DNA from: an uncultured Gemmatimonadales bacterium | GTDB taxonomy: Bacteria > Gemmatimonadota > Gemmatimonadetes > Longimicrobiales > RSA9 | Assembly: GCA_963741945.1 (NCBI GenBank) | Contig: CAVUKA010000001.1 | Location: forward strand, 64,001-128,000 | DNA length: 64,000 bases | Direction: 5' to 3' | In this document: piece by piece, positions 5,342 through 25,250 of the stretch | Layout of the letters: each line of letters opens with the position of its first letter | Position numbering within the stretch: the first letter of the stretch is position 1 | Program-made: the position numbers and the translations under genes | Notes under the pieces: model-generated | Databases searched by the model: none | What the model was told of the DNA's origin: nothing | What the model saw: only the letters and a program-made list of their open reading frames with translations

Positions 5342-5538
5342 CGGTTCTCCTGTGATTCGTGCGTCCGGCTGTGCGCAGCCGGTTCCGTCAATCTGGAGCC
5401 CTGCGCGCCGATGGTCCAGCGAAGAGCTCAACCGCGCGGGCGGAGACGGGAACGCCTCCGGGGGGATGCCCGCGCCGGGAGGATGTACGTCGGCCGATGC
5501 CGGATGTTCCAGCGCTCGTTCCAGGCCTCGGCACGCAT

Positions 5539-5583
5539 GTGCGCCTCACTCGCGTGCGCCTCACGCGCGTGCGGCTCACCCGC
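5539..5583. repeat. 15-bp tandem repeat x3 overlapping the pqiC stop codon
   Basis: gtgcgcctcactcgc/gtgcgcctcacgcgc/gtgcggctcacccgc. Confidence 0.7.
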
Positions 5584-7989: not shown

Positions 7990-9245
7990 GTCGTGCTGCG
8001 GAGAGCCAGCCGTGTCCGGGCGTGTGTGGTGGTGGCGGCGCCGAGCCTTCCTTCCGCGGCATCCCAGAGCAGGCGCGTGTCGAACAGCCGGGCGGCCATC
8101 ATGGTGAACACCACGACCAGCGTGAACGGCACCGCGGCGATGTCGATGTGCACCAGGGCGGCGCCGGGGAAGGAGAGCAGCGGGATCGAGAACGCCTCGA
8201 TGAGCGGGTCGGTGGTGGACCAGCGACCGATGCCGTGGATCGTGCGGTGGATGTGCGTCTGGCGGCGCAGGTTCTCGGGGTGTGGGCTTCGCACGCGGAA
8301 GAGCAGCCAGGTCAGCCCCACCAGCTTCAGGAACGGCACGAGGATGCTGGCGATGATGATGATCACGGCCAGATACCAGAACCCGGCCTGGAACAGCTCT
8401 CGAACCCCGATGATGATCGTCCGATGCTTAACCCCGGTGGGCTGCATGGTGTAGCTCATCGGGAAATAGTACGAGGGGAAATAGAAGATGTAGCCGGCGG
8501 CCACGAGGGCGGCCGTGCGCGTGAGGGCGTTCAACTTCCGGATCCGCAGGCGCCGGCCGCACCGCGGACAGGGTTTCCCTTCCGCGGAGGCGGGGAGCAC
8601 GAGCATGCAGGCATCGCAGCCGAGCGCGTTTCCGTGCTCGGGCGCCTCGCGGTCCGGCTGAATGGCCTCCCAGACAGTGTGGTTAGTCACCACGCGGTTC
8701 AATACCAGGGAGAGCACGCCGGCGCCGGCGAGGCACCAACCGCCCGGCTCCACGTGGGCGGTGAGCTGCTCGGCCGTCCGCATGTAGATGACGAAGCCGG
8801 CCACGATCATGACCTCGGGCATGGCCCAGAGCCGGATGTTGTCGGCGTAGCGGTAGAGCCGCCCGAGCCAGCCGGGCCTCCAGCGCGTGCGTACGGCCGT
8901 GAGCACGAAGGTCAGCAGCGTGGCGCGTGCCACCGGGAGGAACATGACGAAGGCCGCGAGGATGAGGGCCAGCACGGGCCAGCCGTCGCCCCAGACGCCC
9001 ATGATCCCGGAGACGATCCAGGCCTTGTGCGTCCGTCCCAGTGCGGACGCAGACATGACGGGAAAGAGGTTGGCGAGGAGGAGGAGCACGAGCAGGGCCG
9101 CGGACCAGGCCAGACTCAGGGACAGGGTGAGGGACCGGTTGCGATCCAGGATCTGATCGCAGCGGAGGCACCTGGCCTCGGCTCCGGCCTCCACGACCGG
9201 GATACGCTGTATGGCTCCGCAACCCGAACACGCGACCGTCGACAC
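7986..9245 (-). CDS. pqiA: PqiA-family inner membrane protein (duplicated domain with CxxC motifs)
   Basis: CSGC..CLRC and CDAC..CPRC motifs, ANLFPVM, WAMPEV, ASILVPFLK, IGRWS, FDTRLLWD. Confidence 0.93.
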   Translation of the reverse strand: MSTVACSGCGAIQRIPVVEAGAEARCLRCDQILDRNRSLTLSLSLAWSAALLVLLLLANLFPVMSASALGRTHKAWIVSGIMGVWGDGWPVLALILAAFVMFLPVARATLLTFVLTAVRTRWRPGWLGRLYRYADNIRLWAMPEVMIVAGFVIYMRTAEQLTAHVEPGGWCLAGAGVLSLVLNRVVTNHTVWEAIQPDREAPEHGNALGCDACMLVLPASAEGKPCPRCGRRLRIRKLNALTRTAALVAAGYIFYFPSYYFPMSYTMQPTGVKHRTIIIGVRELFQAGFWYLAVIIIIASILVPFLKLVGLTWLLFRVRSPHPENLRRQTHIHRTIHGIGRWSTTDPLIEAFSIPLLSFPGAALVHIDIAAVPFTLVVVFTMMAARLFDTRLLWDAAEGRLGAATTTHARTRLALRSTT

Positions 9246-9308
9246 TACCCCGGCTCCCCTCGAACCAGTCCGTCAACCTGCCCGTACAAAGCTTCCGGAG
9301 GCCCGCAC

Positions 9309-9324
9309 TGCAATTTCGGCTCCG
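9309..9324 (-). promoter_or_regulatory. Possible sigma54 -24/-12 promoter for pqiABC
   Basis: Minus strand cGGagccgaaaTTGCA = GG-N10-GC, about 65 nt upstream of pqiA; the -24 box is imperfect. Confidence 0.35.
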
Positions 9325-9339
9325 GCGTGCCGCGCCGGT

Positions 9340-10347
9340 TCAGGCGGCCGGTTCGTCCTCCGGATGCACGAGGAGCACGGGAAGGCTCGCGGCCCGGATG
9401 ACCTTGTCACTGACGCTGCCCAGGATCAAGCGACGCACGCCGCCCCGGCCGCGCGTGGCCATGGCCACCAGGTCCGCTCCCGCGCTGGCGGCAGCGTCGA
9501 GGATGCCCTCGGCCACGGGTCCCACCCATACGAGCGGCTCCGCCACGGCGACGCCCTGCTCCCGGAGCCGCGCGGAAACGGACTCGAGGTATTCCCCGGC
9601 GGTGCGTCGTGCAGCGTTCACCTGCACCTCCGCCTCTTCCGCCATCTCCGGCATGTACGGCGACGCCACAGGCAGGGTAGGCGCGGTGACGCGGAAGGGA
9701 AGGATCTCGGCCTCCATGACCCGGGCGAGAGCGACGGCTGGAGGCAGGATGGCCTCCGACAGCGGGGAGCCATCGAGTGGCACGAGAAAGCGCCCGATCT
9801 TGGTCGAGCCGGCGGCCGCGACGCTCTGCGCTGCGCCGCCCCCTGCCCCGGCACCCGCCGCCTCCCCGGGGCGGACCAGCAGGATCGGCGTGCTCGACGT
9901 GCGGACCAGGCGATCCGCAACGCTGCCGAGCCACGCACGTTCGATGGGTCCTCTTCCGTGCGTGGACATGACCACGATACCCGGATCCGCTTCCCCGATT
10001 CGACGCGTGAGCTGGGCTTCGGCTGCGCCTTCCAGGACCACCGTGTCGACCTTGTCGATCCCGGCATCGCGAAGCCGCTGCTCGACGCGGTCGAGGTACG
10101 CGGCCCTGTCGCGGAGCAGCGATTCGCGGAGCGCGGCGGTCGAGCCGGTCGTGTCGGCGGGGATCTCCATGCCAATGTCCCAGGCGACGGGTGGCGTGGC
10201 TATGCCTCCGGCGGCCAGCGGAGCGGCGTCGACCACGGTGACGAGCTCCAGCGCGCCGTCGCAGGACCGCGCAATGGCCGTGGCCAGCGGGAGCGCGGCT
10301 TCCGCGAACCCGGATCCATCCAGTGGCACCAGAACGCGCTCGAACAT
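9340..10347 (-). CDS. Universal stress protein, tandem USP domains
   Basis: MFERVLVPLDGS...MSTHGRG..RAWLGSVADRLVR, second domain LVPLDGS...MATRGRGG.RRLILGSVSDKVIR; RBS GGGAGG; true start 10347, not 11334. Confidence 0.93.
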   Translation of the reverse strand: MFERVLVPLDGSGFAEAALPLATAIARSCDGALELVTVVDAAPLAAGGIATPPVAWDIGMEIPADTTGSTAALRESLLRDRAAYLDRVEQRLRDAGIDKVDTVVLEGAAEAQLTRRIGEADPGIVVMSTHGRGPIERAWLGSVADRLVRTSSTPILLVRPGEAAGAGAGGGAAQSVAAAGSTKIGRFLVPLDGSPLSEAILPPAVALARVMEAEILPFRVTAPTLPVASPYMPEMAEEAEVQVNAARRTAGEYLESVSARLREQGVAVAEPLVWVGPVAEGILDAAASAGADLVAMATRGRGGVRRLILGSVSDKVIRAASLPVLLVHPEDEPAA

Positions 10348-10412
10348 GCATCCTCCCTTTGTTGCGCCGGAGACCCGCCTCGGAGACGGACGGGCGCAAG
10401 CCCCGTTCCCGC

Positions 10413-11201
10413 TCAGGCCGTGCCGTTCTCCCGGTCCGTCGGCGGTCCCGGAGGTCGCGGAGCTCCCGGGTCCGCACAGGCGACCCGGCCGATCTCGGGG
10501 CCCCACACGAGGGTTCGTACCTGGCCGGCGGCCTCGCTCCACGCGCCGTGCCAGCGGGCGCCGCCGGGGACCTGGACGATGAAGTCGTCGGCCCCGATCT
10601 CTTCGACCACCACGGCGCGGGTATCGAGCCGAAGCCCCGTTCGCAGCGCCTTCAGGGCGGCTTCCTTCGCCGCCCACGTGAGGTTGGCGAAAAGCGGCCG
10701 CTCGCCCGGCGCCGCCGCGCGCACGCGGGCCGCTTCCGCGGGCGTGAAATAGTCGTCGATGAAGCGCTCGCTTCGCGGCTCGATGGTCTCGAGGTCCACG
10801 CCCAGCTCGCCGCCCCCGAGCCGGGCAGCGGCCAACCCGTTTCCGCCGCTGTGGCTGATGGACACCGCCATGGCAATGAACTCGTCGGCAGCGACGATAC
10901 GGGGTTCCGGAGCGCCGTCGTCCGCCGGGAGCACCTCCACCATGTCGGGCCCGACCTCCCGCCCCGCCGCGGACAGCGCCAGGGCCACGGCGCGCTTCGC
11001 CGCCCAGCGCCCGATCCTCCAGTCGGCTCGCCGTCCGGGCACGCGGTACGCCATGAGCCTGGCCAGCTCCGCATCGGTCAGCCAGTCGCTCGCTTCCGGC
11101 ACCTCCGAGGCGGCCACCAGCACTTCGTGCACGCGCGGCGCGGGGTGCCCGCGCCGGCGCTGGTGGTGGGCGGTGCGCGGCCGGGGCGGCAAAGGTGTCA
11201 T
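10413..11201 (-). CDS. 4'-phosphopantetheinyl transferase (Sfp-like)
   Basis: WLTDAE, GRWAAK, SISHS, GVDLE, WAAKEAALK motifs; ATG overlaps the PKS stop (ATGA). Confidence 0.9.
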   Translation of the reverse strand: MTPLPPRPRTAHHQRRRGHPAPRVHEVLVAASEVPEASDWLTDAELARLMAYRVPGRRADWRIGRWAAKRAVALALSAAGREVGPDMVEVLPADDGAPEPRIVAADEFIAMAVSISHSGGNGLAAARLGGGELGVDLETIEPRSERFIDDYFTPAEAARVRAAAPGERPLFANLTWAAKEAALKALRTGLRLDTRAVVVEEIGADDFIVQVPGGARWHGAWSEAAGQVRTLVWGPEIGRVACADPGAPRPPGPPTDRENGTA

Positions 11202-14200
11202 GCCTTCTGTCGGAGCTCCGGGAACGGGCGCCCTTCCATGGTGGTGGGGAGGGCGGCGGTGCGGTAGCCACGCACCGAAGCCAGCACGGTGCCATCCTCC
11301 GCCACCACGTCCACGTCGTAGCCGGCTTCGGCATCGCCGCCGGCGAGCAGCGCCATGGAGCCTCCGGCGTCGCCCCGGGCCGGGTCGATCAGGTCGACGC
11401 GTTCCACGCTGTACGGCAGCCCCATGCGGGCCGCGTCCGCGATCTCGGCCAGGCCGGCGGTCTGGAACGCCAGCTCGACGAGGCGAGGCGCCGTGAGCAG
11501 CGTCCGCTCCGCGGGGACGTGGTTCGGCGGCAGCGCTTCGGCGAGCCGCCCGGCCAGGAGCGCGCCGGAGCGCCACGCCCGGCCCAGGACCCGGTACGCT
11601 GGGCCATGGAAATAGACATCGTAGATGGCGTCCGCGCCGATCCCGGGCCCGCTCCCGGGAAGATCGCGGCGGTGCGGAGCGTCGGGCGCGCTGGCGGTGA
11701 GCCTCACACGCGCCGTGAAATGCGTGGTCACTTCGGGCTCGGGGCGGCCGTGCAGCGTGCGGGCGCCGAGCAGCGCGCACTCCGCCACCACCTCGTCGCC
11801 ATCCTCGCCGTAGCGCACCCGGACGCTCACGGTGCGCGGCTCATCGCGGTAGAACTTGAACGGCGCGAGGAACGTGACGTCCTCCACGGCCGCGACCCGC
11901 AGCGCCGGGAACGGCAGCGCGGCGGCCTCCGCCATGGCTTCCATGCCCATGACGCCGGGGAGCACCGGGGTGCCGTCGATCCGGTGGTCGTCCAGGAACG
12001 GCTGGGCTTTCGGATCGAGCCGGGTTTCGACCAGGAGCCCGTCGTTCAGGCCGAGCTCCACCACCCGCTCGGCGACGACACCACCGGACCCGTCCGCGTC
12101 CGCCCGTACGCCGCCGCCGGGCGCCCGCGCATCGAGCATGGCGCCCAGCGCGCCGGCGATCACGACTTCGCCGCGGGTGCCGGCGGACAGCTCGCGCCGG
12201 ACGACGGGAACCCCCGCCGCGGGCTCGAGCATGTCAATGCCCGCGGCCTTCAGGATGGTCGGGATCGAGCCGCGGGTGGCCATGCCGATGCCTCCCCACG
12301 CGGTCCAGTCGATGGCTATGCCGCGGGAGGCCGACCTCCGACTGCGGAACGATGAGACCGCCTTGCAGAGCAGGTCGTTGGCCGCGCTGTAGTCGGCCTG
12401 GCCCGCGTTGCCGAAGCGGCCGGCGATGGAGCTGAAGACGACGGCGGCGCCCAGCGGGGCGTCGCCGAGCCCCGCCAGCAGGTTGAACCAGCCGTCGGTC
12501 TTCACGTCGAACACGAGGTCGAACTCTTCCGGCGACTTCTCCGGGATCGACCGGCTGACTTCGAGTCCCGCCGCGTGCACCAGAACGTCCAGCCTGCCCC
12601 GGGCGGCCACCACCTCGCGCATCACGGCCGCCACGGCATCGGCGTCGCGCAGGTCGACGGCGCGCCAGTGCGCGGTGCCACCGGCGGCCTCCACGGCGCG
12701 GATGGCGGCGAGTGCCGCGGCCGCCCGCTCGAGGCGGGCCAGCTGCTTCTCCACCAGCGCCGGCGTCGCCCGCTCGCCGCTGTCCTGGAGCCGCGCGAAG
12801 ATCTCCCGCTTCAGCCCGTCCCGATCGGAAGCGAGCCGCGCCAGGTCCGGGTCGGCCGGGTCGGGCTCCGGCGTCAGGTCCAGGAGCCAGAACTCGCCGC
12901 CCGTCGGGGCCAGGTCCGCGAGAATGGCCGACGTGATGCTCCCCGCCGCGCCCGTGACCACCCAGGCGGCGTCGGCGCCCGGCAGATCGTGCCCCGGCTC
13001 CACGGAACGCGTGTCGAGGCCGACCGTCCAGCGCCTGCCTCCGGCGTGGCCGACCTCCACCACGCCCGGGTCCCGCAGGGTCTCCTCGATGAGCAGGTCC
13101 GCCACTTCGGCCGTCCTCCGGCCCGGGGCGAAGTCCACCGCCTTCACGAGCGCGGCCGGCCGCTCGCGGGCGAACGACTTCACGAGCCCGGTGACGGCGC
13201 CACCGAGGACATCGGCGGCCCCTTCGGCGTCGTACCCGTGGCGGCCGCCGAGACGCGTGGCCGAAACCACGAACCCGCCCGCCGCGCCCACGTCGTCATA
13301 GAGCGAGCGGAGCAGTGCGTAGAGCGCTTTCACGCGGAGCTGGAGCGCCTCCCGCCGTTGCCGGGGCTCGAGCAGCGCGGCGTCGTCGAGGATGTCGAGC
13401 GCCGGAAGCCAGTACACCCCCCGGATCGGGCCTTCCGCCCGCCACCCAGCCAGCCGCTTCGCCAGCGCATCCGGGCTCGCCGCGTCCTCGAGCACCAGCG
13501 GCGCGACGCCGCGTTTCTCCAGCCGGCCCACGAGCGCTTTCGCGACCCCGCCGGTGTCGGGCATCACGACCACGCGGGCTCCCTTGCCCAGCGAGACGCC
13601 CGTTTCCCGGAAGAACGCGATGGGCGGACGCAGTCGCGGGACCGGAACGCGGCGCGGAACCGCCTGCGCGGCCGCCATGTCACTCGCCATGTCACCCGCC
13701 ATGTCACCCGCCATGGCGCGCGGGGCCACGTCGAGGCCGGGGGTCGGCGGCGTGTCCGGAGGCGCGGACCCGGGCTGCGGGGCTCCACCGGCCGCGGCGA
13801 TCGATGGTGCTTCGCCGGCGGCGGGCGCGAGGTCCGGTCGCTTCTCGTACACGAACTCGATGGCCCGCTTCAGCGTGGGGTAGTCCCGGAGCGCCAGCTC
13901 CTCGTCCCGCTCGATGCCGTACTCCTCGCGGATCGCCGCGAACATCTCCGCCTGCTTCACGGTGTCGATGCCCAGGTCCGCTTCCAGGTCCAGGTCCAGC
14001 TCCAGCATGTCCGGCGGGTAGCCGGTCTGCTCCGCCACGATCCCAAGGACGCGCGCGCGCACGGGGTCGCCGGGCGCTGCGCCCGGAGCGGGGGCTGCCG
14101 CGGCCGGGGCGGGTGGAGGGGAGGTGGTCGCGCCGGCGGCGGGTGCGAGGTCCGGGCGCTTCTCGTACACGAACTCGATGGCCCGCTTCAGCGTGGGGTA

Positions 14201-17200
14201 GTCCCGCAACGCCAGCTCCTCGTCCCGCTCGATGGCGTACTCCTCGCGGATCGCCGCGAACATCTCCGCCTGCTTCACGGTGTCGATGCCCAGGTCCGCT
14301 TCCAGGTCCAGGTCCAGCTCCAGCATGTCCGGCGGGTAGCCGGTCTGCTCCGCCACGATCCCCAGCACGCGCTCCCGGATCGGATCCGCGACCGCCACGG
14401 CCGCGGTGCCCGGGACAGCAGTCGTGTCCGGGGCCAGGCCCGCGCCGGGCTGCGGGCGCGCACCCGGGGCCGCGGCCGGCGCGCTCGGCACGGACGCCGT
14501 CGCCGGCAGGGGCATTGCCCCGGGGGCGGCCGGTGTCCCGGCCGGGGCGGGGGCGCCGTTGCGCAGCCGGAGCACGCGCTTCACCACTTCCAGCTCGCCC
14601 GGCCGCCCGCCAGCGATGTCCGCCAGCCACCGATCCCAGGCCGCGCGGTCGGCGATGCGGTGGTGGAATCCCACGCTGCCGGGCGCCCGGCGCGCGCCGT
14701 CGGGCGGCGGGGTCCAACGCAGGAGGCTCATGGCGATCTGCGAGCCGAAACCGGCGCCCAGCCGCAGCGCGTAGGTGACCGGCCGAGCGCCGCCGCGGGA
14801 CAGGTTGAGCTCGCCGAGCTCGGGATCGACGTCGCGGAAATTGGCCACCGGGGGGATCACGCCCGTCTCGAGCATGCGCACGGCCAGAGCGTCCTCGATG
14901 CCCACAGCCATCGGGTGGCCCGTGTGACCCTTGGTATTGGCGACGATGATGCGGTCCACCGCGTCGCCGAAGACGCTCCGCAGCGCCACGACTTCCGCCG
15001 ACGCGCTCCCGCCGCGCGCAGGCGTGTACGTCTCGTGGGAGACGAACACGGTGTCGCCGGCGATCTGGCGGCGGTCGATCCCCCATTCTCGCTCGGCATC
15101 GGAAACCAGGCGCTCCATCACGGCGGCGATGTGCTGCACGTCCAGGCGGCTGCCATGGAACGCGCTGTTCGCCACCGCGGTGCCGAGGATCTCACAGATC
15201 GGCGACAGCCCCCGCTCCGCGGCGGCGTCCAGCGCCTCCACCACGAGCGCCGCGCCACCCATCCCGATGATGAGACCATGACGGCGCCGATCAAACGGGA
15301 GCGCAGCGTCCTCCAGGCGCTCGTCGGTGGCCGCGGCTCCGGAGGCCAGGAACCCGCTGCCGAACCACGGAAGGAGGGCGTCGGTGGTGATGTCGTCCGC
15401 GGACAGGACAATGACGCGACGGCAGCGCCCGGCGGCGATCCAGTCCCGGGCGAGCGCCGTGGCCTGGGTGCCGCTGGCGCACGCTGCGTTGGTGCCGATG
15501 TTGGGGCCGCGCGCAACGATGTACTCGGCGAACTGGGCGTGGCCCATGCTGAGCACCTGGAACAGGAAGCGGCGGTCGAAGCGGAAGGGGTTGGCTGCCA
15601 GCTCGGTCTCCAGGGCGACGATCCGGGCGTCCACCTCCTCGATGGCAGACGCTTCCCCTCCCGCCGGCAGCTTCGCTCGCAGGGATCGGAGCTCCTCCAG
15701 CCGCTCGCGCCGGGCACGGTCCTCGTGGTAGCCCTCGATCACGCGCGCGAAGGAATCGTAGCCGGGGAAAGCGGACGCGAAGATGACACCGGTGTCGTCC
15801 CGCATCGATTCCGGGAGCGCCCAGCCGTCCGGGAGCTTCGATCCGGTGGTCGTGGTCTTGTGCCGCAGCACGAGCGGAATTCCGGCATCGCGCAGCGCGT
15901 CGAGCCCCGCGGCGATGGCGAGGCGGGTGACCCGGTCCAATGCGCCGAGCCGATCCTCCGGGAAGCCGTACTCCTCCACCAGGTCCACTGCCCCGCCGCG
16001 GCCAGCGAGCTTGATCACGTCCGCAGGGTCGTCGATGGTCTCGAAGCGCGCGTCCCCGTTCGACCCTTTCACCAGCCGGGTGATCCGGTGCCCGGCCATG
16101 GCTTCACGCAGCCCCTGCGGCACTGCGCCGATCAGCGCCTCTCCCGCGAGGATCCGCTCCAGGTTCCGCTCATCGAACACCCACTCCCCACCGGGGAGCC
16201 CGAGCGCCGCGCCCGTGATCCCCACCCGCACCGGGCGCGCGGCCCGGCCACCCGCCCAGGTCTCGAAGCTGCGCTCGAGGAAGTCGGAGAACATCCGGCC
16301 CAGCGCCAGGTGCCGGTCCTCGTCCCGTGTGGCGCCGGCGATGCGGGAACGCGTGGCTGACAGCGACGGGTCGGGCGCGGGGGTCGGCCAGGGCGTGTCG
16401 GGCGTGTCGGCCGTATCGCGCATGTGGGGCGCGGACAGCGCGGCGGCGGCGGGAGTCGCGGGCTGTGCCAGGCTGTGGGCGCGCGGCGATGGCGCGAGCG
16501 TCCGGGCCGCCCCGTGACCGGCGGCGTAGAGGCCGCAGAGCGCGCGGTTGAACGAGACGACGTCACCCGTCCTGGGGTGATTCGTGAAGAGGGTGGTCAC
16601 GTCCTCGCGGCCGCCGAGAACGTCTTCGGCGAAGCCGTAGAGGACGCGCTTCGGGCCCATCTCGATGAACACGCGGGCGCCGGCGTCGTACAGCGTCTCC
16701 AGCCCCCTGACGAACTGGACGGGGGAGCCGACCTGCCGGGCGAGGATGTCGCGCATGCGCTCCACCACGTCGCCCTCCGCCGGGTAGAACTGGCCATCCA
16801 CGTTGGCGACGATGGGGCGGTCGGGCGGCCGGAGCGACAGCGAGCTCAGCACCTGAACGAGCGGCTCCGAGGCCTGGGCCACGATCTCCGTGTGGAACGC
16901 GTGGCTGACGGGGAGCGGCTGCGCGCGCATGCCGGCTCCCCGCAGTGCTTCCATGGCCGCGGTCACAGCCGCGGTCGCGCCGCCGATGACGCACTCCTTC
17001 GTGCTGTTCAGGTTGGCAATGACCACATAGCCGTCCACGCCTCCGATCACGTCACGCACGCGCTCCACGTCGCCGAACACGGCAGCCATGAGCCCGTTGT
17101 CCTCCATGGCGAGGTGCGTCATGGCGTCCCCGCGCGCGGAGACGGCCCTGAGCGCGTCGGCGAACGACATGCCCGCGGCCGCGACGAGGGCGCCATACTC

Positions 17201-19270
17201 GCCGAGGCTGTGCCCCATGACCATGTCGGGCTCGATGCCGTACGCGACCATCAGCCGGGCCAGCGACGTGTCCACGGCCAGCATCGCGGGCTGGGTGATG
17301 GCCGTCTGCTTCAGCGCCTCCTCTGCGGCCGCCAGTGCAGTACCGTCCCCGGCGTCCACGAAGATCCGGGACGTGAGCGTGCTCCCGATGAGCGGCGCCA
17401 TGACCCCGTCCGCCTCGTCGAACGTGTCCGCCACCACCGGCTCCGTGTCGCGCAGCCCCCGCAGCATGTTGGCGTACTGGGAGCCCTGCCCCGTGAACAG
17501 GAACGCGACTCTCCCGGGCGCGCCCCGGCCCAGGAACACGCCCTTGTTCCGGAGCGCGCGCCAGCGGCCGGCATCGCCCGTGTCGAGCGCGGCGAGGGTC
17601 CTGGTGGCCAGGTCCGCCAGCTCGGCGGCGTCGCCGTAGTCGATGGCGAGGCGGACCGGCGCGTCGAGGTCGGCGCGGGCGGGCGGTGCGGGCGGCGGCG
17701 CGTCGCCGGCCTCCGCGGCCGCCTTCACCGCTTCCAGGCGACGCGCGATGTCCGCTTCCGACGCCCCGCCGATCACGAGCGCGCCCCGAAGGGGAGCCTT
17801 GAGCGGCATGGCCCCGGGTACGTGCGCCCGCGGCGCGGGTGAGGGCACGTACTCCTCCAGCACCACGTGGAAGTTCGTCCCGCCGAAGCCGAACGCGCTC
17901 ACGCCCGCCCTGCGCGGGCCGCCATCGGAGCGATGCGGCCAGTCGCGCATCTCGGCCACCACGGCCATCGTGGCGCGGCCGAAATCGATGCCGGGGTTCG
18001 GGCGCGCGAAGTTGATGCTGGCGGGGACAGCGCCATGGTGGAGCGAGAGGGCGGCCTTGAGCATCCCAACGGCGCCCGCAGCCCCCTTCAGGTGCCCGAT
18101 GTTCGACTTCACCGAGCCGAGCATGAGGGCGCCCGGCGCCAGCGCGGCCCCGGCGAACACCTCATCCATGCTCGCGACTTCCACGACGTCGCCCACGCGC
18201 GTCGACGTGCCGTGCCCCTCGATCAGGTCGCCCGCCGCGGGCACCAGGCCGGCGTTGGCCCACGCGCGCTCCACCGCCAGCTGCTGGCCGATGGGGTTCG
18301 GCGCCGTGATCCCCTTCCCTCGCCCGTCGCTGGAGCCACCCACCCCGCGGATGACGGCGTAGACGCGGTCGCCATCTCGCTCGGCGTCGGCCAGCCGCTT
18401 CAGCAGGAAGATCACCGCACCCTCGCCCATCACGAAGCCATCGGCCCCCTCCGCGTACGGCCGGGAGCCGGTGGCGCTGAGCGCGCCGATCTTGCAGAAC
18501 TTCACGAATGCGGACGGGCTCATGTTCGCGTCCGCGCCGCCCGCCAGGACCGCGTCGAAATCGCCATTCTCGAGACCGTCGATGGCGGCATAGAGGGCGG
18601 CCATGGCGGAGGCGCACGCGGCGTCCGTGACGAAATTGGGGCCGCGGAAGTCGTACAGCGCGGCAATGCGGCCGGCGGTGATGTTGGACAGCTCCCCCGG
18701 CATCGTGTCCTCGGTGATATCCGGGATCCGCCGGTTCACACCGGCCCGGAGCTCTTCGAGGACCGCGGCGCGCACGTCCTCCGGCAGGGCGCGGTAGGCG
18801 GGCGCCGCCCGGAGCTCCTCGGCCACTTCGGGGAAGAGGATGCGGGCGCCCGTCAGGAGGTGGTAGTCGCCACCCATCGCGTTGCCGAGAATCACGGCCG
18901 TGCGGTCGCCATCGAGCGGGCGATGGGGGTGTCCATAGTCGAGCAGCGCCTGCCTCGCCGCGGCGATGGCGTACTTCTGCGTGGGATCCATGGACGCCGC
19001 CACTTTCGGCGGGATCGGCATGCGCCACCCGAGCGGGTTCCACTCGTAGTCGGCGACCCACCCGCCGATCTTCGAGTACGTCCGGTCCGGCGCGCGCGGG
19101 TCCGGGTCGAAGTAGAGGTCCGCGTTCCAGCGCTCGCGGGGAACGTCGCGGATGCTGTTGCGTCCTTCCTTCAGGTTCTTCCAGAACGCGGCCACGTCGG
19201 GCGCGTCCGGGAGGACCGCCCCGACTCCCACGATGGCCACCGACCTGCTGCGCGCGCTGCTGTCCATCAT
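11198..19270 (-). CDS. Iterative type I PKS/FAS, PfaA-like, KS-AT-KS-ACP-ACP-KR-DH
   Basis: KS1 DAACAS/EGHGTST/KSNIGHLK; AT GQGSQY/GHSLGEY/VSHAFH; KS2 NAACAS/SHETYT/TKGHTGHP; two ACPs LEADLGIDTVKQAE; KR VTGAAGSIT/FSSIAGRFGNAGQADYSAAN; DH DHRIDGTPVLPG. Confidence 0.93.
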   Translation of the reverse strand: MMDSSARSRSVAIVGVGAVLPDAPDVAAFWKNLKEGRNSIRDVPRERWNADLYFDPDPRAPDRTYSKIGGWVADYEWNPLGWRMPIPPKVAASMDPTQKYAIAAARQALLDYGHPHRPLDGDRTAVILGNAMGGDYHLLTGARILFPEVAEELRAAPAYRALPEDVRAAVLEELRAGVNRRIPDITEDTMPGELSNITAGRIAALYDFRGPNFVTDAACASAMAALYAAIDGLENGDFDAVLAGGADANMSPSAFVKFCKIGALSATGSRPYAEGADGFVMGEGAVIFLLKRLADAERDGDRVYAVIRGVGGSSDGRGKGITAPNPIGQQLAVERAWANAGLVPAAGDLIEGHGTSTRVGDVVEVASMDEVFAGAALAPGALMLGSVKSNIGHLKGAAGAVGMLKAALSLHHGAVPASINFARPNPGIDFGRATMAVVAEMRDWPHRSDGGPRRAGVSAFGFGGTNFHVVLEEYVPSPAPRAHVPGAMPLKAPLRGALVIGGASEADIARRLEAVKAAAEAGDAPPPAPPARADLDAPVRLAIDYGDAAELADLATRTLAALDTGDAGRWRALRNKGVFLGRGAPGRVAFLFTGQGSQYANMLRGLRDTEPVVADTFDEADGVMAPLIGSTLTSRIFVDAGDGTALAAAEEALKQTAITQPAMLAVDTSLARLMVAYGIEPDMVMGHSLGEYGALVAAAGMSFADALRAVSARGDAMTHLAMEDNGLMAAVFGDVERVRDVIGGVDGYVVIANLNSTKECVIGGATAAVTAAMEALRGAGMRAQPLPVSHAFHTEIVAQASEPLVQVLSSLSLRPPDRPIVANVDGQFYPAEGDVVERMRDILARQVGSPVQFVRGLETLYDAGARVFIEMGPKRVLYGFAEDVLGGREDVTTLFTNHPRTGDVVSFNRALCGLYAAGHGAARTLAPSPRAHSLAQPATPAAAALSAPHMRDTADTPDTPWPTPAPDPSLSATRSRIAGATRDEDRHLALGRMFSDFLERSFETWAGGRAARPVRVGITGAALGLPGGEWVFDERNLERILAGEALIGAVPQGLREAMAGHRITRLVKGSNGDARFETIDDPADVIKLAGRGGAVDLVEEYGFPEDRLGALDRVTRLAIAAGLDALRDAGIPLVLRHKTTTTGSKLPDGWALPESMRDDTGVIFASAFPGYDSFARVIEGYHEDRARRERLEELRSLRAKLPAGGEASAIEEVDARIVALETELAANPFRFDRRFLFQVLSMGHAQFAEYIVARGPNIGTNAACASGTQATALARDWIAAGRCRRVIVLSADDITTDALLPWFGSGFLASGAAATDERLEDAALPFDRRRHGLIIGMGGAALVVEALDAAAERGLSPICEILGTAVANSAFHGSRLDVQHIAAVMERLVSDAEREWGIDRRQIAGDTVFVSHETYTPARGGSASAEVVALRSVFGDAVDRIIVANTKGHTGHPMAVGIEDALAVRMLETGVIPPVANFRDVDPELGELNLSRGGARPVTYALRLGAGFGSQIAMSLLRWTPPPDGARRAPGSVGFHHRIADRAAWDRWLADIAGGRPGELEVVKRVLRLRNGAPAPAGTPAAPGAMPLPATASVPSAPAAAPGARPQPGAGLAPDTTAVPGTAAVAVADPIRERVLGIVAEQTGYPPDMLELDLDLEADLGIDTVKQAEMFAAIREEYAIERDEELALRDYPTLKRAIEFVYEKRPDLAPAAGATTSPPPAPAAAAPAPGAAPGDPVRARVLGIVAEQTGYPPDMLELDLDLEADLGIDTVKQAEMFAAIREEYGIERDEELALRDYPTLKRAIEFVYEKRPDLAPAAGEAPSIAAAGGAPQPGSAPPDTPPTPGLDVAPRAMAGDMAGDMASDMAAAQAVPRRVPVPRLRPPIAFFRETGVSLGKGARVVVMPDTGGVAKALVGRLEKRGVAPLVLEDAASPDALAKRLAGWRAEGPIRGVYWLPALDILDDAALLEPRQRREALQLRVKALYALLRSLYDDVGAAGGFVVSATRLGGRHGYDAEGAADVLGGAVTGLVKSFARERPAALVKAVDFAPGRRTAEVADLLIEETLRDPGVVEVGHAGGRRWTVGLDTRSVEPGHDLPGADAAWVVTGAAGSITSAILADLAPTGGEFWLLDLTPEPDPADPDLARLASDRDGLKREIFARLQDSGERATPALVEKQLARLERAAAALAAIRAVEAAGGTAHWRAVDLRDADAVAAVMREVVAARGRLDVLVHAAGLEVSRSIPEKSPEEFDLVFDVKTDGWFNLLAGLGDAPLGAAVVFSSIAGRFGNAGQADYSAANDLLCKAVSSFRSRRSASRGIAIDWTAWGGIGMATRGSIPTILKAAGIDMLEPAAGVPVVRRELSAGTRGEVVIAGALGAMLDARAPGGGVRADADGSGGVVAERVVELGLNDGLLVETRLDPKAQPFLDDHRIDGTPVLPGVMGMEAMAEAAALPFPALRVAAVEDVTFLAPFKFYRDEPRTVSVRVRYGEDGDEVVAECALLGARTLHGRPEPEVTTHFTARVRLTASAPDAPHRRDLPGSGPGIGADAIYDVYFHGPAYRVLGRAWRSGALLAGRLAEALPPNHVPAERTLLTAPRLVELAFQTAGLAEIADAARMGLPYSVERVDLIDPARGDAGGSMALLAGGDAEAGYDVDVVAEDGTVLASVRGYRTAALPTTMEGRPFPELRQKA
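13814..14386 (-). repeat. Intragenic near-identical duplication of the ACP domain (period 318 bp)
   Basis: Two ~255-bp copies; block 13918-14044 is identical to 14236-14362. Confidence 0.9.
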
Positions 19271-20955
19271 GCGGCTCCGTTCGTGTCACGGCCGTACAGT
19301 GCGTCGGCCACCTCGTCCATGTCCGCCACGAGTCCCGCCTGCGCCGCGTGGATCGGCCCGACGCGGAGCGACTGCTGGAAGCCCGCGAGATCCGGGAGCG
19401 GCACGCCATCGGCGCCCACGGCCCAGCGGATTCCCTCCGCCACGACCGCCGCCGCGGCCTCCCGCGCGTAGACACGGCTGGCCGCCGTGAGGGCGTCCGG
19501 TGCCAGGCGACGATCGGCTTTGGCCGGCAGCTCGCCCGCCGCGGCCCGCGCGGCCCGGCGAGTCAGCGCCGCCGCCGCTTCGACGCGGGCGATGAGGTCG
19601 CCGAACCGCAACAGGAGGTGCTGACTCCGCGTGAGGCGCTGGAGACGGGCGCGCTCCAGCAGCTCCGCCAGGGCGTGGGCGGCCAGAGCGACCGTGTCGG
19701 CCCCCACGCCGGGCGCCACGGCGGACACCTGCTCCAGCTTCACCGCCTCATCGTGGTAGTGCTGCCCGCGCGTCTTCAGATGCTGCTGCCAGCGGTCCCG
19801 TGCAATGGTCATCTCCATGATCTCCGACGTGCCCTCGTAGATCGTGGTGATGCGTACGTCGCGGCGGATCTTCTCCACCTCGTACTCCCGCACGTAGCCG
19901 TAGCCGCCCAGCGCCTGCATCGCCGCGTCCGCCGCCGCGTTCCCCGCTTCCGTGGCGATGTACTTGGCAATGGCGCCCTCCGTGTTCAGCGCGCCTTCGC
20001 CCGCGTCGATCCGCACCGCCGTCTCCTCGATGCACGCCCGCCCGGCTTCCAGACGGCAGGCGTGCGGCACGATCAGCTTGTGCGTGTAGCCCTGTTTCTC
20101 GGCAAGGGGACCGCCCGCCTGGATGCGCGTCCTCGAGTACGCGATGGCCCGATCCAGCGCCGCCCAGCCGGCGCCCAGGCCAAACGCGGCCACCATGAGC
20201 CGCGTGTAGCCGAACACCAGCTGCGCCTGTACGAGCCCCTGCCCCTCCACGCCGCCCACCAGGTCGGACGCCGGGACATACACGTCGTCGAAGGAAAGCG
20301 CGGCCGTATTGCTCGCCCGGATCCCGTGCTTGTCCTCCGGCTTCCCGTGGTCGAGCCCGTCCACCCCCTTCTCCAGCACGAACCACGTCGGCCCGCCCGG
20401 GGCAAGGGCGAGAACGCTGTAGAGGTCGGCGAACCCGCCGTTGCTGATCCACATCTTGGCGCCGTTGATGCGATAGCCGACCACCGCGCCGCCCTCCTCC
20501 ACCCGCTTCGCCACCGTCCGGAGCGCGCCCAGATCGCTTCCCGCTTCCGGCTCCGTGGCGCCGTACGCCATCAGCAATCCCTCTTCCGCGATCCGCCCCA
20601 GCCAGCGCGCCTTCTGCTCTTCCGTCCCACCCCAGAGGATCGGATCACTGCCCAGGAACGTGGCCAGAACCCCCGTCGCCACGCCGAGATCGATCGCCGA
20701 CAGCAGCTCGCACACGCGGTACACGTCGAACGCGCCCCCATCCATCCCGCCGTATGCCTCGGGGATGAAGAGGAGCTGCACGCCCAGCTCCCCGCACATG
20801 GCGCGGATCGTCTCCTCCGGGAACTCGTGGCTGGCGTCCAGCTCGAGCAGCCGCTCCCTGGGCAGGTGCTCGGCCGCGAAATCGCGGATCGAGGCGAGGA
20901 TCAGCTCCAGCGTCTCCCGGTCCAGACCGGCGTTCGGCGTCGCAACGATGGTCAT
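19267..20955 (-). CDS. Acyl-CoA dehydrogenase with C-terminal extension
   Basis: TEPEAGSD, INGAKMWISNG, KHGIRASNT, QALGGYGY..EY, IYEGTSEI; stop overlaps the PKS start. Confidence 0.95.
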   Translation of the reverse strand: MTIVATPNAGLDRETLELILASIRDFAAEHLPRERLLELDASHEFPEETIRAMCGELGVQLLFIPEAYGGMDGGAFDVYRVCELLSAIDLGVATGVLATFLGSDPILWGGTEEQKARWLGRIAEEGLLMAYGATEPEAGSDLGALRTVAKRVEEGGAVVGYRINGAKMWISNGGFADLYSVLALAPGGPTWFVLEKGVDGLDHGKPEDKHGIRASNTAALSFDDVYVPASDLVGGVEGQGLVQAQLVFGYTRLMVAAFGLGAGWAALDRAIAYSRTRIQAGGPLAEKQGYTHKLIVPHACRLEAGRACIEETAVRIDAGEGALNTEGAIAKYIATEAGNAAADAAMQALGGYGYVREYEVEKIRRDVRITTIYEGTSEIMEMTIARDRWQQHLKTRGQHYHDEAVKLEQVSAVAPGVGADTVALAAHALAELLERARLQRLTRSQHLLLRFGDLIARVEAAAALTRRAARAAAGELPAKADRRLAPDALTAASRVYAREAAAAVVAEGIRWAVGADGVPLPDLAGFQQSLRVGPIHAAQAGLVADMDEVADALYGRDTNGAA

Positions 20956-21233
20956 GAGGCGTTCGGGGATGTAGAGATTGGACAGCGGGCGGAGCCCGGG
21001 CGCGATCGACGGCTACGACCCTCGCGCACGAAGGTCACGGCCCTGATGCACGGGATCCCGTGAGTTACCGCGGCCGGCCTGGCGACGAAAGGAGGCGATG
21101 CCGGAATCTGCGGCGGGGAGGTTCCGCACACCGCGCGTGGGGTATTTCCCTGCGACGGAATTCGCCGCGAAAGACGAGCGAGGGGCCTGCGATCACCGTC
21201 GCAAGCCCCTGGCCCCTGGCCGGCTCCCGTGCC

Positions 21234-21842
21234 TCAGTGGCGCGGTCCGGCGGGCGGGGACGCCTCCCGCTTGAACGCCGACGCCTCCTGCGCAGCGAAA
21301 TCGCGGTTCCGCTCCGCCTCCTCCTTCAGCACCTCGCGGTCGTGGGCCAGGTTGCGCCGCGCCCGCTCCAGTCGGAGCTCGCTCGCGTCCCGCATGTCGC
21401 GCGCTGCGCTGCCGGCGAAGATGGCGGCGGCGAGGGCGAGGGCAGCGCCTACGATCAGGCCGCCGGCCCAGAACGCCCCGCCCAGCAGGACGCCGATCCC
21501 GAGGATGGCGCCCGTGGTGAGGGCGAGGCCCGCCAGCAGGCCGAGTGAGAGCGCGACGCCCAGCTTGGTCAGGTCCTTCGCCAGAGTGCGCCCCGCGTCC
21601 TGCAGCTCGGCCGAGAAGGTGCCGGCCACCTCCCGCAGCTCGAGCTTCGCCAGCTCCAGCTCGTCGTGCACCAGCTGTGTCGCGTCGCGGTTCAGCCGGC
21701 CGAGGAGCTGCTTGAGATCGGCGCCGTCCCCGGCCGGGGCGCGGCCGGCACGGAGATACCCCGGGACGGGCTCGCGCAGCCGCTCGACGGACGGGCCGCC
21801 GGGTCTGGGCGTGCGCTCGGGCGTGTATTCGCCGGCGCTCAT
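21234..21842 (-). CDS. Holin-X/YqjE (DUF1469)-like membrane protein
   Basis: L..DATQLVHDELELAKLEL followed by two TM helices; coupled to the DUF3618 gene. Confidence 0.75.
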   Translation of the reverse strand: MSAGEYTPERTPRPGGPSVERLREPVPGYLRAGRAPAGDGADLKQLLGRLNRDATQLVHDELELAKLELREVAGTFSAELQDAGRTLAKDLTKLGVALSLGLLAGLALTTGAILGIGVLLGGAFWAGGLIVGAALALAAAIFAGSAARDMRDASELRLERARRNLAHDREVLKEEAERNRDFAAQEASAFKREASPPAGPRH

Positions 21843-22870
21843 GCTCCCCTCCCCGGCTCGGTCATGGACCGATCCGCGGTCTGGCGATGGTCCTCACCGT
21901 CCGCCACGGGCCAGCTCTCGTCCACCGCCCGCCGCGCCGCCTCCCCGGCCTTCTCCCGGGCGACGTCGTGCGCGCGCCCGCTCATTCGCCGAGCCTGCTC
22001 CTCCGCCCGGTCCAGCACCCGGTCCCGCGTGCGACCGAAGAGCTCGTGCTCGCGCTGCGTCTCCGGCGCCATCAAGCCCGCGGCGAAGCCCAGTGCCGCC
22101 GCCACTGCGCCCGCGGCCAGCGGGTTCTCGCGCACCGCGTACTCGACCCTGTGCTCCGCCCGCATGGTCTGGTGCTCGGCCTCGTGCACCCACTCTCCCG
22201 CCCGCTCGCGGCCGTGTCGCACGCGGTCGGCGGCTTCGTCCGTCAGCTCCGACGCCTTCTCCCGGGCCGTGTCCGCGGCGTCGCTCGCCTTCTCCTGCAC
22301 CCGCGATGCCGCCTGCCGCACACGCTCCTTCGCCCCGGCCTCGGTGTCGTCGCCGGACTCGACGTCCCGGCTCTGCCGCAGCCGCGCCGCCTCGAGCTCC
22401 GAACCGGTGATGTAGCCGGCCGCGTACCGCTCCGCGTAAGGCTCCGCCGCGTAGCCGACGGCGTACCGTTCCACGTACGGGTCCGCCGGGCCGTAGCCGC
22501 CCCGGACCCGGGCCCGGCCCTGCAGGCGACGCGACCGCTCGTACTCGTCGTCGTCATGCCCGCCGCCGTTCGCCACCAGCCAGGCGAGCCCCACGCCCAC
22601 CATCGTGGCCGGGATCGGGTTCTCCTTGATGGTCTGCCACAGGCCCCGGCCGCCCTCCGACACCTCGTGCTCGACGTCCCTCATGGTGCTCCTCGCCTTC
22701 CGCTTCACCGTTCGCTTCCACTCGTCCACTTCACCCCGGGCCCGCGCCTTCAGCTCGCGCTGCAGCCGGTCCGGGTTCACGCGGGCGCCGATCTCCTCTA
22801 CCGTGTCCGCCATGCGGGCGCGCGTATCCTCGATCCGCTCACGGACCTCCCGTTCCGATTCCTCACGCAT
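21839..22870 (-). CDS. DUF3618-domain protein with DUF883-like repeats
   Basis: VRERIEDTRARMADTVEEIGARVNP; two ENP(I/L) + hydrophobic segments; PETQRE; start MREESER with GAGG RBS. Confidence 0.8.
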   Translation of the reverse strand: MREESEREVRERIEDTRARMADTVEEIGARVNPDRLQRELKARARGEVDEWKRTVKRKARSTMRDVEHEVSEGGRGLWQTIKENPIPATMVGVGLAWLVANGGGHDDDEYERSRRLQGRARVRGGYGPADPYVERYAVGYAAEPYAERYAAGYITGSELEAARLRQSRDVESGDDTEAGAKERVRQAASRVQEKASDAADTAREKASELTDEAADRVRHGRERAGEWVHEAEHQTMRAEHRVEYAVRENPLAAGAVAAALGFAAGLMAPETQREHELFGRTRDRVLDRAEEQARRMSGRAHDVAREKAGEAARRAVDESWPVADGEDHRQTADRSMTEPGRGA

Positions 22871-23582
22871 AGCCGCCCTCCTCCTCGATCCGCTCCGCCG
22901 CCTCGCGCGGTGGGGCTTCCCGGCGATAGGGCGCCGACGGGCGGGACTCGCTGCGATACCCCCGCCCCGGCTCAGGGCCGTACACACCGCCATATCCCGC
23001 GGACGACTCGTAGCCCCGGCTCCCGGCGTAGCCACGGCCGGAATCGTACCCCCGGTCACGTCCGCCGCCCCGGGCCTCGGAGCCCGAGCTCTTCAGGAAA
23101 CGCGCGCCAGCCAGCCCCAGCGCGAACGCGCCACCAAGGAAGAGCGGCGCGTTGTCACGGGCGAAACGGCGCGCCTCGCGCGTCAGCCCATCCACGTCGC
23201 GCCGTTCCAGGTACCGCGACGCACCTTCCACGCGTTCCGCCACCGTCTCCAGGAAACGACTGTACTGCCGATCGTCTTCCGGCAGGTCCTCGCTCCCGCG
23301 CCGCAGCGCGTCCGCCACGGTCCGCATCCCGCCGGCGACCCGCTCCTTCTGCTCATCCGCACGTGAACGCGCCTCGCTCGCCGCTTCGTGCCCGAGATCC
23401 CGGGCCTTCTCCTTGCCCTCCTCCACCAGCTCGCGGCCACGGTCCCTGGCCTCCGCGGCGACGGCCTCGGCGCTCGACTCCGCCCGGTACACAGTGCTCC
23501 GCACCTTCTCCTTCGCCTTCCCGGTCGCGTTCTCCGGCTCCCGCCGCCGATGTCGTTCCGCCGACTCGTGTGATTCCGCCAT
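22863..23582 (-). CDS. Hypothetical hydrophilic stress-type protein (LEA/DUF883-like)
   Basis: EQKERVAGGM..VADALR, RYLERRDVDGL..EARRFARDNAPLFLGGAFALGLAGARFLKSS, a common partner of DUF3618/holin-like genes. Confidence 0.75.
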   Translation of the reverse strand: MAESHESAERHRRREPENATGKAKEKVRSTVYRAESSAEAVAAEARDRGRELVEEGKEKARDLGHEAASEARSRADEQKERVAGGMRTVADALRRGSEDLPEDDRQYSRFLETVAERVEGASRYLERRDVDGLTREARRFARDNAPLFLGGAFALGLAGARFLKSSGSEARGGGRDRGYDSGRGYAGSRGYESSAGYGGVYGPEPGRGYRSESRPSAPYRREAPPREAAERIEEEGGYA

Positions 23583-23717
23583 CTGATTCTCCCAGCTGGA
23601 TTTACATCGCCTGGCATGCGCGGCTCGCGGCCATGGGAAGGCGTGCGAGCCGTGTAAACATTTGATGCATTCGCTGTGCCGGACGCTCTGTCCGGAGCCG
23701 CCGGTGGGCGGGGGCGC

Positions 23718-25055: not shown

Positions 25056-25250
25056 GAACTCCGCTGGGTACGTATCCCTTGGGTCGGGGCTCGCAAGATG
25101 AACCCCGGGCGCTCCGCCCGCAAACACACCGGGCCCGGGCCCGGACCGTCATGCCCCGCCCGGCTTCTGCCCACCGCTTTCCGGGGCCGGGCGCAGGCCT
25201 TATCCTCCGATGTTCAACCGAACACTCATCCCGAATCCAGGAACCCGCCC

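Follow-up and report, generated by a model that had tools for sequence, protein, structure and literature searches.

Our findings suggest that a three-gene operon in a 64,000-nucleotide stretch of DNA from an uncultured Gemmatimonadales bacterium encodes a lipid synthase that hands its enoyl-reductase (ER) step to a separate flavoenzyme. The stretch, hereafter the window, is G000:C1:64001-128000 of a genome of 4.09 Mb (8 contigs, 70% GC, 96.73% complete). Its minus strand carries genes for an acyl-CoA dehydrogenase (ACAD), for a megasynthase with two ketosynthase (KS) domains, an acyltransferase (AT), two acyl carrier protein (ACP) domains, a ketoreductase (KR) and a dehydratase (DH), and for a 4'-phosphopantetheinyl transferase (PPTase). 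On domain and gene order the operon fits the description of the Type R secondary lipid synthase cluster, in the compact form ACAD-synthase-PPTase. Comparative genomics somewhat favours the view that the ACAD supplies the synthase's ER step, working in the reductive direction with electron-transferring flavoprotein (ETF). A complete fatty-acid-type cycle with outsourced enoyl reduction is the simplest reading, because the ER-less synthase has an ACAD, FabI or a fused FabK-like domain at the same position, takes the place of FabF in one lineage and in most loci precedes an acetyl-CoA carboxylase (ACC) gene. A first-pass annotation had placed the three genes and their two ATGA overlaps correctly, as seen in the open reading frames (ORFs), Pfam matches and sequence. 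It had also counted an enoyl reductase among the missing parts, a role that the ACAD itself probably fills, given the synteny and the ACAD/FabI displacement described below. The three genes are as follows.

19267..20955, minus strand: VLCAD-like ACAD family flavoenzyme (562 aa; Pfam ACAD N, M and C domains)
11198..19270, minus strand: Type R megasynthase KS1-AT-KS2-ACP-ACP-KR-DH (2690 aa; Pfam, NCBIfam and family alignment)
10413..11201, minus strand: Sfp-type PPTase (262 aa if the overlapping ATG is the start; Pfam ACPS, PF01648, 67.8 bits)

We searched for the window proteins by tblastn in 80 loci, kept out of 595 relatives. A full-length ACAD (56-78% identical, including the C-terminal 170 aa) lies directly 5' of the synthase on the same strand in 63 of the 70 loci with more than 1.8 kb of upstream DNA. 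Two further loci (L058, L065) gave fragmentary ACAD matches only. Five loci, four from Elusimicrobia (L055-L057, L061) and one labelled Thermoplasmatota (L054), have no adjacent ACAD, and all five genomes carry an ortholog elsewhere (54% identical, residues ~10-552). The same association was found within the bacterium's own phylum, sampled with 151 genomes (146 of them at least 90% complete). KS2 was detected in two, G000 and G028, with G102 among the 149 negatives, and a full-length ACAD ortholog was found in exactly these two genomes. That of G028 is 78% identical over residues 8-556 and lies a few kb from its synthase, and all other ACAD matches in the phylum are at most 44% identical and cover the core only. 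By these comparisons, the VLCAD-like ACAD is a conserved core gene of the Type R cluster. Downstream, a single-chain ACC of ~1870 aa (BC-BCCP-ACC_central-CT) lies directly 3' of the synthase in 45 of the 55 loci with at least 1.5 kb of DNA, and the PPTase gene follows ACC in 26 of those 45; the window's order, with PPTase directly after the synthase, occurs in six loci. This ACC is eukaryote-style (L004:14916-20537 and 44 other loci), and most of the Acidobacteriota and Actinomycetota relatives encode it between the synthase and its PPTase. The window genome has no single-chain ACC, only matches of biotin-carboxylase size.

Genes for the likely redox partners were linked to the cluster by clustering of flanking ORFs, followed by Pfam and then tblastn. 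In 39 of the 71 loci with more than 2 kb of upstream DNA, genes for an EtfD-like Fe-S/CCG oxidoreductase (~720 aa), EtfB and EtfA immediately precede the ACAD gene on its own strand, in the order EtfD-EtfB-EtfA-ACAD in Acidobacteriota and EtfB-EtfA-EtfD-ACAD in Actinomycetota. The window genome encodes orthologs of the EtfD, EtfB and EtfA that are linked to Type R clusters in Acidobacteriota (58, 59 and 55% identical, respectively) at C1:135745-139482, a short way beyond the window and ~50 kb from the operon. The operon had been described as self-contained, and its three genes do form one tightly packed unit; it is not fully self-contained, however, because these likely partners of the ACAD are encoded on the same contig at a distance of ~50 kb. 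Another, more distant EtfBA pair is found on C3 (~416.7-418.7 kb).

In some genomes of the class Elusimicrobia, FabI stands where the ACAD is found elsewhere. We sampled 61 genomes of this class (completeness not given), scoring as clear Type R those with two KS matches in one open frame of at least 1800 aa. Fourteen genomes were clear Type R, and three more contained partial synthases. FabF above cut-off was absent from all of these (0/17) and present in 30 of the 44 others; three of the 17 had weaker stand-alone KS-like matches. By these matches, Type R and FabF are mutually exclusive among the sampled Elusimicrobia, where Type R seems to replace the type II fatty acid synthase (FAS II) altogether. 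An ACAD ortholog (48-59% identical, E<=1e-90) occurs in 13 of the 61 genomes, including 10 of the 14 clear Type R genomes and none of the 30 FabF-positive ones, a FabI homolog (E<=1e-40) in 12, and FabK in none (0/61). Among the 14 clear Type R genomes, nine have the ACAD without FabI, four an adjacent FabI without the ACAD, one (G195) has both, and none has neither. In G163, G167, G169, G173 and G184, all without an ACAD ortholog, FabI lies on the same contig and strand, ~0.5 kb 5' of the KS1 match. This adjacency was read on the DNA in three genomes (G173, G163 and G184; loci L116-L118), where FabI abuts KS1-AT-KS2-ACP-KR-DH, is 46-50% identical to the FabI of the window genome, and the carriers again read DLGIDTVKQAE. 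The FabI of L116-L118 is diverged, scoring 237-246 bits on the FabI model compared with 340-359 for FabI in FabF-bearing relatives.

Two further arrangements were found among the loci without an adjacent ACAD. In the four Elusimicrobia metagenome-assembled genomes (MAGs) with an unlinked ACAD, the ACAD gene is followed by EtfB-EtfA. In these MAGs the synthase's KS1 and KS2 account for all FabF-like matches, and FabG is the one adh_short_C2 protein that stands alone; FabK was not found in them. In L054, the synthase ORF (4885-9675) opens with a FabK-type ER domain of ~370 aa before KS1, which matched FabK-type enoyl-ACP reductases in the PDB with E values of 1.7e-12 to 1e-7. The L054 MAG, labelled a Thermoplasmatota archaeon, holds two ACAD orthologs (one on L090, the other on another contig); the presence of a bacterial-type lipid megasynthase in this archaeal bin could reflect transfer or bin contamination.

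The ACAD protein consists of a core (residues 1-390) and a C-terminal helical domain (~395-555), and its catalytic Glu374, in a YEGTSEI motif, is invariant in 28 of 28 aligned sequences. An AF2 model built from a 28-row alignment had a pLDDT of 88.2 and a pTM of 0.90, with helices 399-554 mostly above a pLDDT of 90. Full-length structure matches (TMq 0.73-0.80 over ~580 columns) were led by B. anthracis 3OWA (TMq 0.80) and included human VLCAD (7S7G, 2UXW, 3B96), T. thermophilus 2Z1Q and ACAD9 (8PHE); short ACADs cover the core only. The protein thus combines the traits of the VLCAD type, namely three ACAD core domains with the Glu in a YEGT motif and an extra C-terminal alpha-helical domain. 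Because the full-length matches are to VLCAD, ACAD9 and 3OWA, the modelled fold points to long acyl chains as substrate. No NCBIfam equivalog model was reached by the ACAD, the best being that of acryloyl-CoA reductase AcrC (240 bits, with a cut-off of 640). The reductive family members 5OL2 (Bcd-EtfAB) and 6FAH (CarC) are among its PDB matches. A predicted complex between the ACAD and carrier domain 2 of the synthase weakly supports the reductase role: the median score was 0.57 (runs of 0.57, 0.60 and 0.55; best control 0.11), in a range where passes are oftener wrong than right unless the pairing is likely beforehand. In the calibration, only 18 of 157 solved complexes scored at or below 0.60, as did the two mismatches that passed. 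Contact agreement between runs was 100% and partner pLDDT at least 85, and in the calibration overall the mark was reached by 116 of the 157 solved complexes and 2 of 215 mismatches.

The synthase domains were mapped by separate Pfam and NCBIfam scans of pieces of the protein and by an alignment of 14 family members (58-80% identity).

17831..19270, minus strand: KS1, PfaA-type ketosynthase (residues 1-480; Cys219/His353/His393; Pfam ketoacyl-synt, Ketoacyl-synt_C)
16601..17518, minus strand: AT (residues 585-890; GHSLGE Ser688, Arg713 and HAFH in invariant columns; Pfam Acyl_transf_1, FabD model)
14561..16243, minus strand: KS2, diverged FabF-like ketosynthase with a charged insertion (residues ~1010-1570)
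14156..14398, minus strand: carrier domain 1 (residues 1625-1705; motif DLGIDTVKQAE; Thr1664, codon 14279-14281, at the Ser position)
13826..14083, minus strand: carrier domain 2 (residues 1730-1815; 93% identical to domain 1; Thr1770, codon 13961-13963, at the Ser position)
12251..13603, minus strand: KR (residues ~1890-2340; Lys2257, Ser2280/2281, Tyr2294 and Asn2298 in invariant columns; Pfam KR, adh_short)
11201..12088, minus strand: DH, PKS-type double-hotdog (residues ~2395-2690; His2429; Pfam PKS_DH_N, PS-DH)

The AT is presumably of the malonyl type, following the established HAFH motif rule. KS2 scored 124.8 bits against the FabF model TIGR03150, and its Cys1264 (codon 15479-15481), His1412 and His1452 do not vary among the 14 family members aligned; because of this conserved Cys-His-His triad, KS2 is not a Cys-less chain-length factor. 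Pfam found no FabA-type DH in the synthase, and neither Pfam nor NCBIfam found an ER, thioesterase or reductive release domain in any of the three operon proteins. The absences listed in the first-pass annotation therefore hold in part (PfaD, thioesterase, reductive release domain, separate KS-CLF gene), but a second KS, which it had missed, lies inside the synthase.

Both carrier domains read DLGIDTVKQAE, with Thr in place of the pantetheine-bearing Ser. In HMMER alignments to five solved ACPs (PigH and four type II ACPs) this Thr falls exactly on the pantetheine Ser, and the AcpP of the same genome, which reads DLGADSLDTVEL (DSL motif), aligns with the carrier motif without gaps. The domains belong to the carrier fold family (PF00550, 60 bits) and lack the Ser of the DSL-type motif; carrier domain 2 contains no Ser at all. 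Thr was found in 380 of 381 motif copies from 121 relatives, distant Elusimicrobia forms included. Because the domains are strongly conserved and a dedicated PPTase is present, Thr1664 and Thr1770 are probably the phosphopantetheine attachment sites.

We propose the following cycle. The PPTase would activate both tandem carrier domains, with Thr1664 and Thr1770 as the most likely sites, and the AT would load malonyl units with which two catalytically intact ketosynthases, the PfaA-like KS1 and the FabF-like KS2, possibly dividing the labour between them, extend the chain iteratively. KR and DH would bring each beta-keto group to the trans-2-enoyl stage. The translationally coupled ACAD would then most likely reduce the carrier-bound long-chain enoyl intermediate, with electrons delivered by ETF (EtfAB) and the EtfD-like membrane Fe-S oxidoreductase encoded at C1:135.7-139.5 kb. 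The predicted product is a long, mostly saturated acyl chain, which would be formed in parallel with the activity of the housekeeping FAS II. A broader claim, which we advance only tentatively, is that Type R as a whole is a complete type I fatty acid synthase in which an ETF-driven reverse ACAD forms a new class of enoyl-ACP reductase, interchangeable with FabI and FabK, and in which the Thr-phosphopantetheinylated carriers are the first natural Thr-linked carrier protein.

Several points weigh against this proposal. ACADs normally run oxidatively, and ETF and EtfD normally pass electrons to quinone. EtfD-EtfB-EtfA of the window genome sit not beside the synthase but in a beta-oxidation operon, fadB-fadA-ACAD(605 aa)-EtfD-EtfB-EtfA. 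A FabI is encoded in the genome and could do the step in trans, and no release enzyme was identified. The distribution of reductases is not strictly exclusive, as the G195 and L054 genomes carry both the ACAD and another ER candidate, while G194 and G201 (partial synthase ORFs, 1.4 Mb) show neither ACAD nor FabI; the search of the Elusimicrobia for FabV was silent in control genomes as well, so that FabV may be present. Carrier proteins changed from Ser to Thr tend to be poor PPTase substrates. We found no report of Thr-linked phosphopantetheine in the literature, including the part of bioRxiv 10.1101/2025.01.28.635281 drawn on here.

Some of these same points favour an alternative in which the housekeeping FabI reduces the enoyl intermediate in trans and the ACAD works oxidatively, through ETF, EtfD and quinone, introducing a 2,3-double bond into the finished chain or providing an enoyl starter. 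FabI is available in the genome, EtfD-EtfBA lies in a beta-oxidation operon, the G195 and L054 genomes combine the ACAD with another ER candidate, and the close PDB relatives of the ACAD are all dehydrogenases, though reductive Bcd-Etf and CarC are on that list. We nonetheless regard this alternative as unlikely, if credible. The four gut Elusimicrobia MAGs contain the synthase and ACAD-EtfBA without FabI, FabK or a stand-alone FabF, and in ACAD-less genomes FabI takes the exact place of the ACAD; a desaturase is not expected to alternate with an enoyl reductase.

A second alternative, to which we assign a low probability, dispenses with enoyl reduction: the synthase would then resemble the enediyne polyketide synthases (PKSE) and make a conjugated polyene or a 3-hydroxy polyketide, as a pigment or signal, with the ACAD tailoring the product or unrelated to it. 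The synthase indeed has no ER domain, its only DH is PKS-type and there is no thioesterase, and its patchy occurrence in the phylum (2/151) is as seen for secondary metabolites. Yet FabF is missing from the Type R genomes of the sampled Elusimicrobia (0/17 vs 30/44), implying that the synthase makes ordinary fatty acids. It also comes with candidates for a dedicated ER (the ACAD, FabI or a FabK fusion) and is followed by ACC in 45 of 55 loci, and the 58-80% identity of its proteins across phyla is an uncommon level for pigment polyketide synthases.

That the operon is an incomplete or split polyunsaturated fatty acid (PUFA) synthase completed by pfaB/C/D-like genes elsewhere is scarcely conceivable: the best NCBIfam match of the synthase is indeed the PfaA model TIGR02813, but its 855.7 bits do not reach the curated cut-off of 1010.1, the PfaD-type FMN enoyl reductase model TIGR02814 has 0 matches in the 96.73%-complete genome, and no FabA-type DH is present in the synthase. 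Genome-wide tblastn with the KS, AT, KR and DH domains revealed no other megasynthase, PfaB, PfaC or separate KS-CLF gene; besides the synthase itself it returned FAS II genes (FabD/FabF on C8) and, on C4, another gene that is FabF-like. This bears out the earlier judgement that the system is not a standard PUFA synthase. A check for a full FAS II, also suggested there, showed that it is complete, with plsX-fabH-fabD-fabG-acpP-fabF on C8, as well as fabZ, and with fabI on C3 (found through PF13561 and NCBIfam); no FabK match above cut-off was obtained in the genome. Because a complete FAS II is present and PfaB/C/D partners are absent from the genome, the operon is an auxiliary synthase, neither the cell's sole one nor a split PUFA synthase. 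The second FabF-like ketosynthase on C4 (G000:C4:73329-74678; L082:5329-6678) scores 487.3 bits, just below the FabF cut-off of 493.75, and adjoins genes for a geranylgeranyl-reductase-family flavoprotein and a PRK06202-like protein.

Type R was described as a cluster with one pfaA homolog whose domains run KS-MAT-CLF-ACP(3-6)-KR, followed by a PPTase gene, with product unknown, and its named members are Koribacter, Solibacter, Elusimicrobium and Roseiflexus (Shulse & Allen 2011, PLoS One 6:e20146, PMC3098273); in Koribacter an ACC gene lies between the pfaA homolog and the PPTase gene. The window synthase has the same succession of KS, MAT, second KS-like domain, tandem ACPs and KR, with the PPTase gene 3' of the pfaA homolog, and shares with Type R the spread over unrelated phyla. 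It differs in having two ACPs rather than the 3-6 stated, no ACC gene and an extra C-terminal PKS-type DH. The term 'acyl-CoA dehydrogenase' occurs 0 times in the text of PMC3098273 available to us, and the passages drawn on here mention neither a C-terminal DH nor a carrier Thr. The middle domain is labelled CLF in that paper, but here it keeps Cys-His-His. We consider that the invariant KS2 triad corrects the family-wide 'CLF' label, on the present alignment, rather than excluding the window gene from Type R.

Common descent with the named members was assessed from pairwise identities to MAG relatives. Those from Korobacteraceae and Solibacteraceae (L021, L068, L036) are 56-59% identical over the full length, one from Caldilineaceae (L078) 55%, also full length, and those from Elusimicrobiaceae (L055-57, L061) 40-42%. 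More broadly, identity over the full length is 50-63% for relatives from Acidobacteriota, Actinomycetota, Myxococcota, Chloroflexota and Rhodothermales and ~40% for those from Elusimicrobia. A word-indexed protein search with KS2 scored 8000 candidates, of which 3625 matched at E<=0.001. The matches listed, 120 in number and including the window's own P0004, are 60-100% identical over at least 90% of KS2; the 119 others are 60-85% identical to the window KS2, and most share the full Pfam set. In contigs from one genome per species, 595 of 601 pattern matches encode a relative, corresponding to at least 595 genome stretches from many phyla. The cluster is rare in its own phylum, with none in the one same-family genome searched (G032), yet common in Acidobacteriota, and its patchy distribution in the phylum is compatible with gene transfer or repeated loss.

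The operon had been put forward as a candidate uncharacterised lipid or polyketide pathway. Its product is indeed uncharacterised, but the architecture is not new, being that of Type R (PMC3098273) and present in at least 595 stretches. We found no characterised cluster of the same architecture, and no later characterisation of Type R or of the same domain string in the literature beyond Shulse & Allen 2011. The cluster type was thus already catalogued in 2011, and the present analysis adds two family-wide oddities that are open to experiment, the displacement of the ACAD by FabI or FabK and the Thr carriers. Our literature search likewise yielded no report of an ACAD as the ER of a PUFA-like synthase.

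Within the operon, the overlap between the ACAD and synthase genes reads 'gcATGAtgg' at 19267-19270 and that between the synthase and PPTase genes 'gcATGAcac' at 11198-11201, where the PPTase ORF overlaps the synthase stop codon. Because similarity to the PPTases of relatives begins only at about residue 24-41, translation of the PPTase may in truth begin at a codon inside the ORF and not at the overlapping ATG; the operon is unchanged in either case. The PPTase matches TIGR00556 above cut-off (47.7 bits) and has the ACPS/4'-PPT domain within a two-lobed protein of ~230-260 aa, but does not reach the HetI equivalog model (28 bits, cut-off 370). Third-position GC is 0.90 in the ACAD gene and 0.91 in the synthase gene, a strong coding signal. 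Cluster GC (0.72-0.74, genome 0.70) gives no clear sign of horizontal transfer by composition. Upstream of the operon lies one further feature.

20956..21233, minus strand: non-coding gap of 278 bp 5' of the ACAD gene, candidate operon promoter region

The gap itself makes this the likely promoter region. A consensus scan of 9200-21400 found no sigma-70-like site (0 promoter-like sites) and one terminator-like site, inside a universal stress protein (USP) gene, fewer than in shuffles. This tandem USP gene (9340-~10480, minus strand) starts at or just past the PPTase stop codon, in a frame overlapping the PPTase 3' end, and may be co-transcribed with the operon; it is not kept beside Type R clusters (0/80 loci). 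Directly 3' on the same strand is a PqiA-PqiB(MlaD x3)-PqiC intermembrane lipid-transport operon (5576-9245, minus strand), also absent from the relatives' loci (0/80). On the 5' side there are a gene of the Holin-X family (PF07332) and one for a DUF3618/DUF883 protein, with a 4-bp overlap (21234-23059, minus strand), and the next ORF (23183-23908) has no family. None of the neighbours USP, PqiABC, Holin-X and DUF3618 is a member of the cluster, as none was found in the 80 related loci. The region lies between genes for two large proteases of the tricorn type (PD40 propeller, Tricorn C1, PDZ, S41), at 2021-5431 (minus strand) and 23880-28574 (plus strand); the latter ORF (listed at 1564 aa) probably uses a later start codon than the first. 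Past the 3' end of the window, the beta-oxidation operon spans G000:C1:130305-139485 (L083:2305-11485), and its 605-aa ACAD has an Acyl-CoA_dh_C domain.

Type R spans Acidobacteriota, Actinomycetota, Gemmatimonadota, Myxococcota, Chloroflexota, Elusimicrobiota and others, and no product has appeared in the searchable literature since 2011. If the ACAD is the reductase, it would be a fifth enoyl-ACP reductase solution after FabI, FabL, FabK and FabV and would link lipid synthesis to the ETF/quinone pool, with a bearing on the targets of FabI-type inhibitors and on how the lipid biomarkers of major soil phyla are read. Thr-linked phosphopantetheine, if true, would change the textbook rule on carrier proteins and motif-based annotation tools. 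The compact three-gene form in the window (10.5 kb, without ACC) is a convenient construct for testing both ideas.

Compared with known systems, the operon combines parts of several. With the Pfa-type PUFA synthases (PfaA-E) of marine Gammaproteobacteria, which also use two different KS activities, it shares a KS-AT head of the PfaA kind, ACPs in tandem, KR, a DH of PKS type and an Sfp-type PPTase of its own. Unlike them, it lacks PfaB, PfaC with its FabA-type DH pair, and PfaD, has its second KS fused between AT and ACP, carries Thr rather than Ser in its carriers and is predicted to perform no cis-double-bond chemistry. The enediyne PKSE (KS-AT-ACP-KR-DH-PPTase) is likewise an iterative, ER-less type I synthase with its own PPTase, but it has one KS, a fused PPTase, a partner thioesterase and a polyene product, whereas the window system has a second KS, tandem Thr carriers, a separate PPTase and an ER candidate.

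For that candidate, the reductive ACADs that work with ETF offer a parallel in chemistry. Clostridial butyryl-CoA dehydrogenase/EtfAB (5OL2), CarC (6FAH) and AcrC have the same fold, reduce an enoyl thioester and take electrons from ETF, and the Ascaris 2-methyl-branched-chain enoyl-CoA reductase is another ACAD fold running reductively with ETF. These proteins differ from the window ACAD in their size (~380 aa), their short CoA-ester substrates and their place in fermentation, and we know of none that serves as the ER of a fatty-acid or polyketide megasynthase. VLCAD-type enzymes, which oxidise long-chain acyl-CoA with ETF as electron acceptor, resemble it in form, sharing the core, the C-terminal helical domain and the YEGT Glu at only 24-27% identity. 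The window ACAD stands apart from that group in its setting: its gene shares an operon with that of a biosynthetic megasynthase, at a position where, in relatives, it alternates with FabI.

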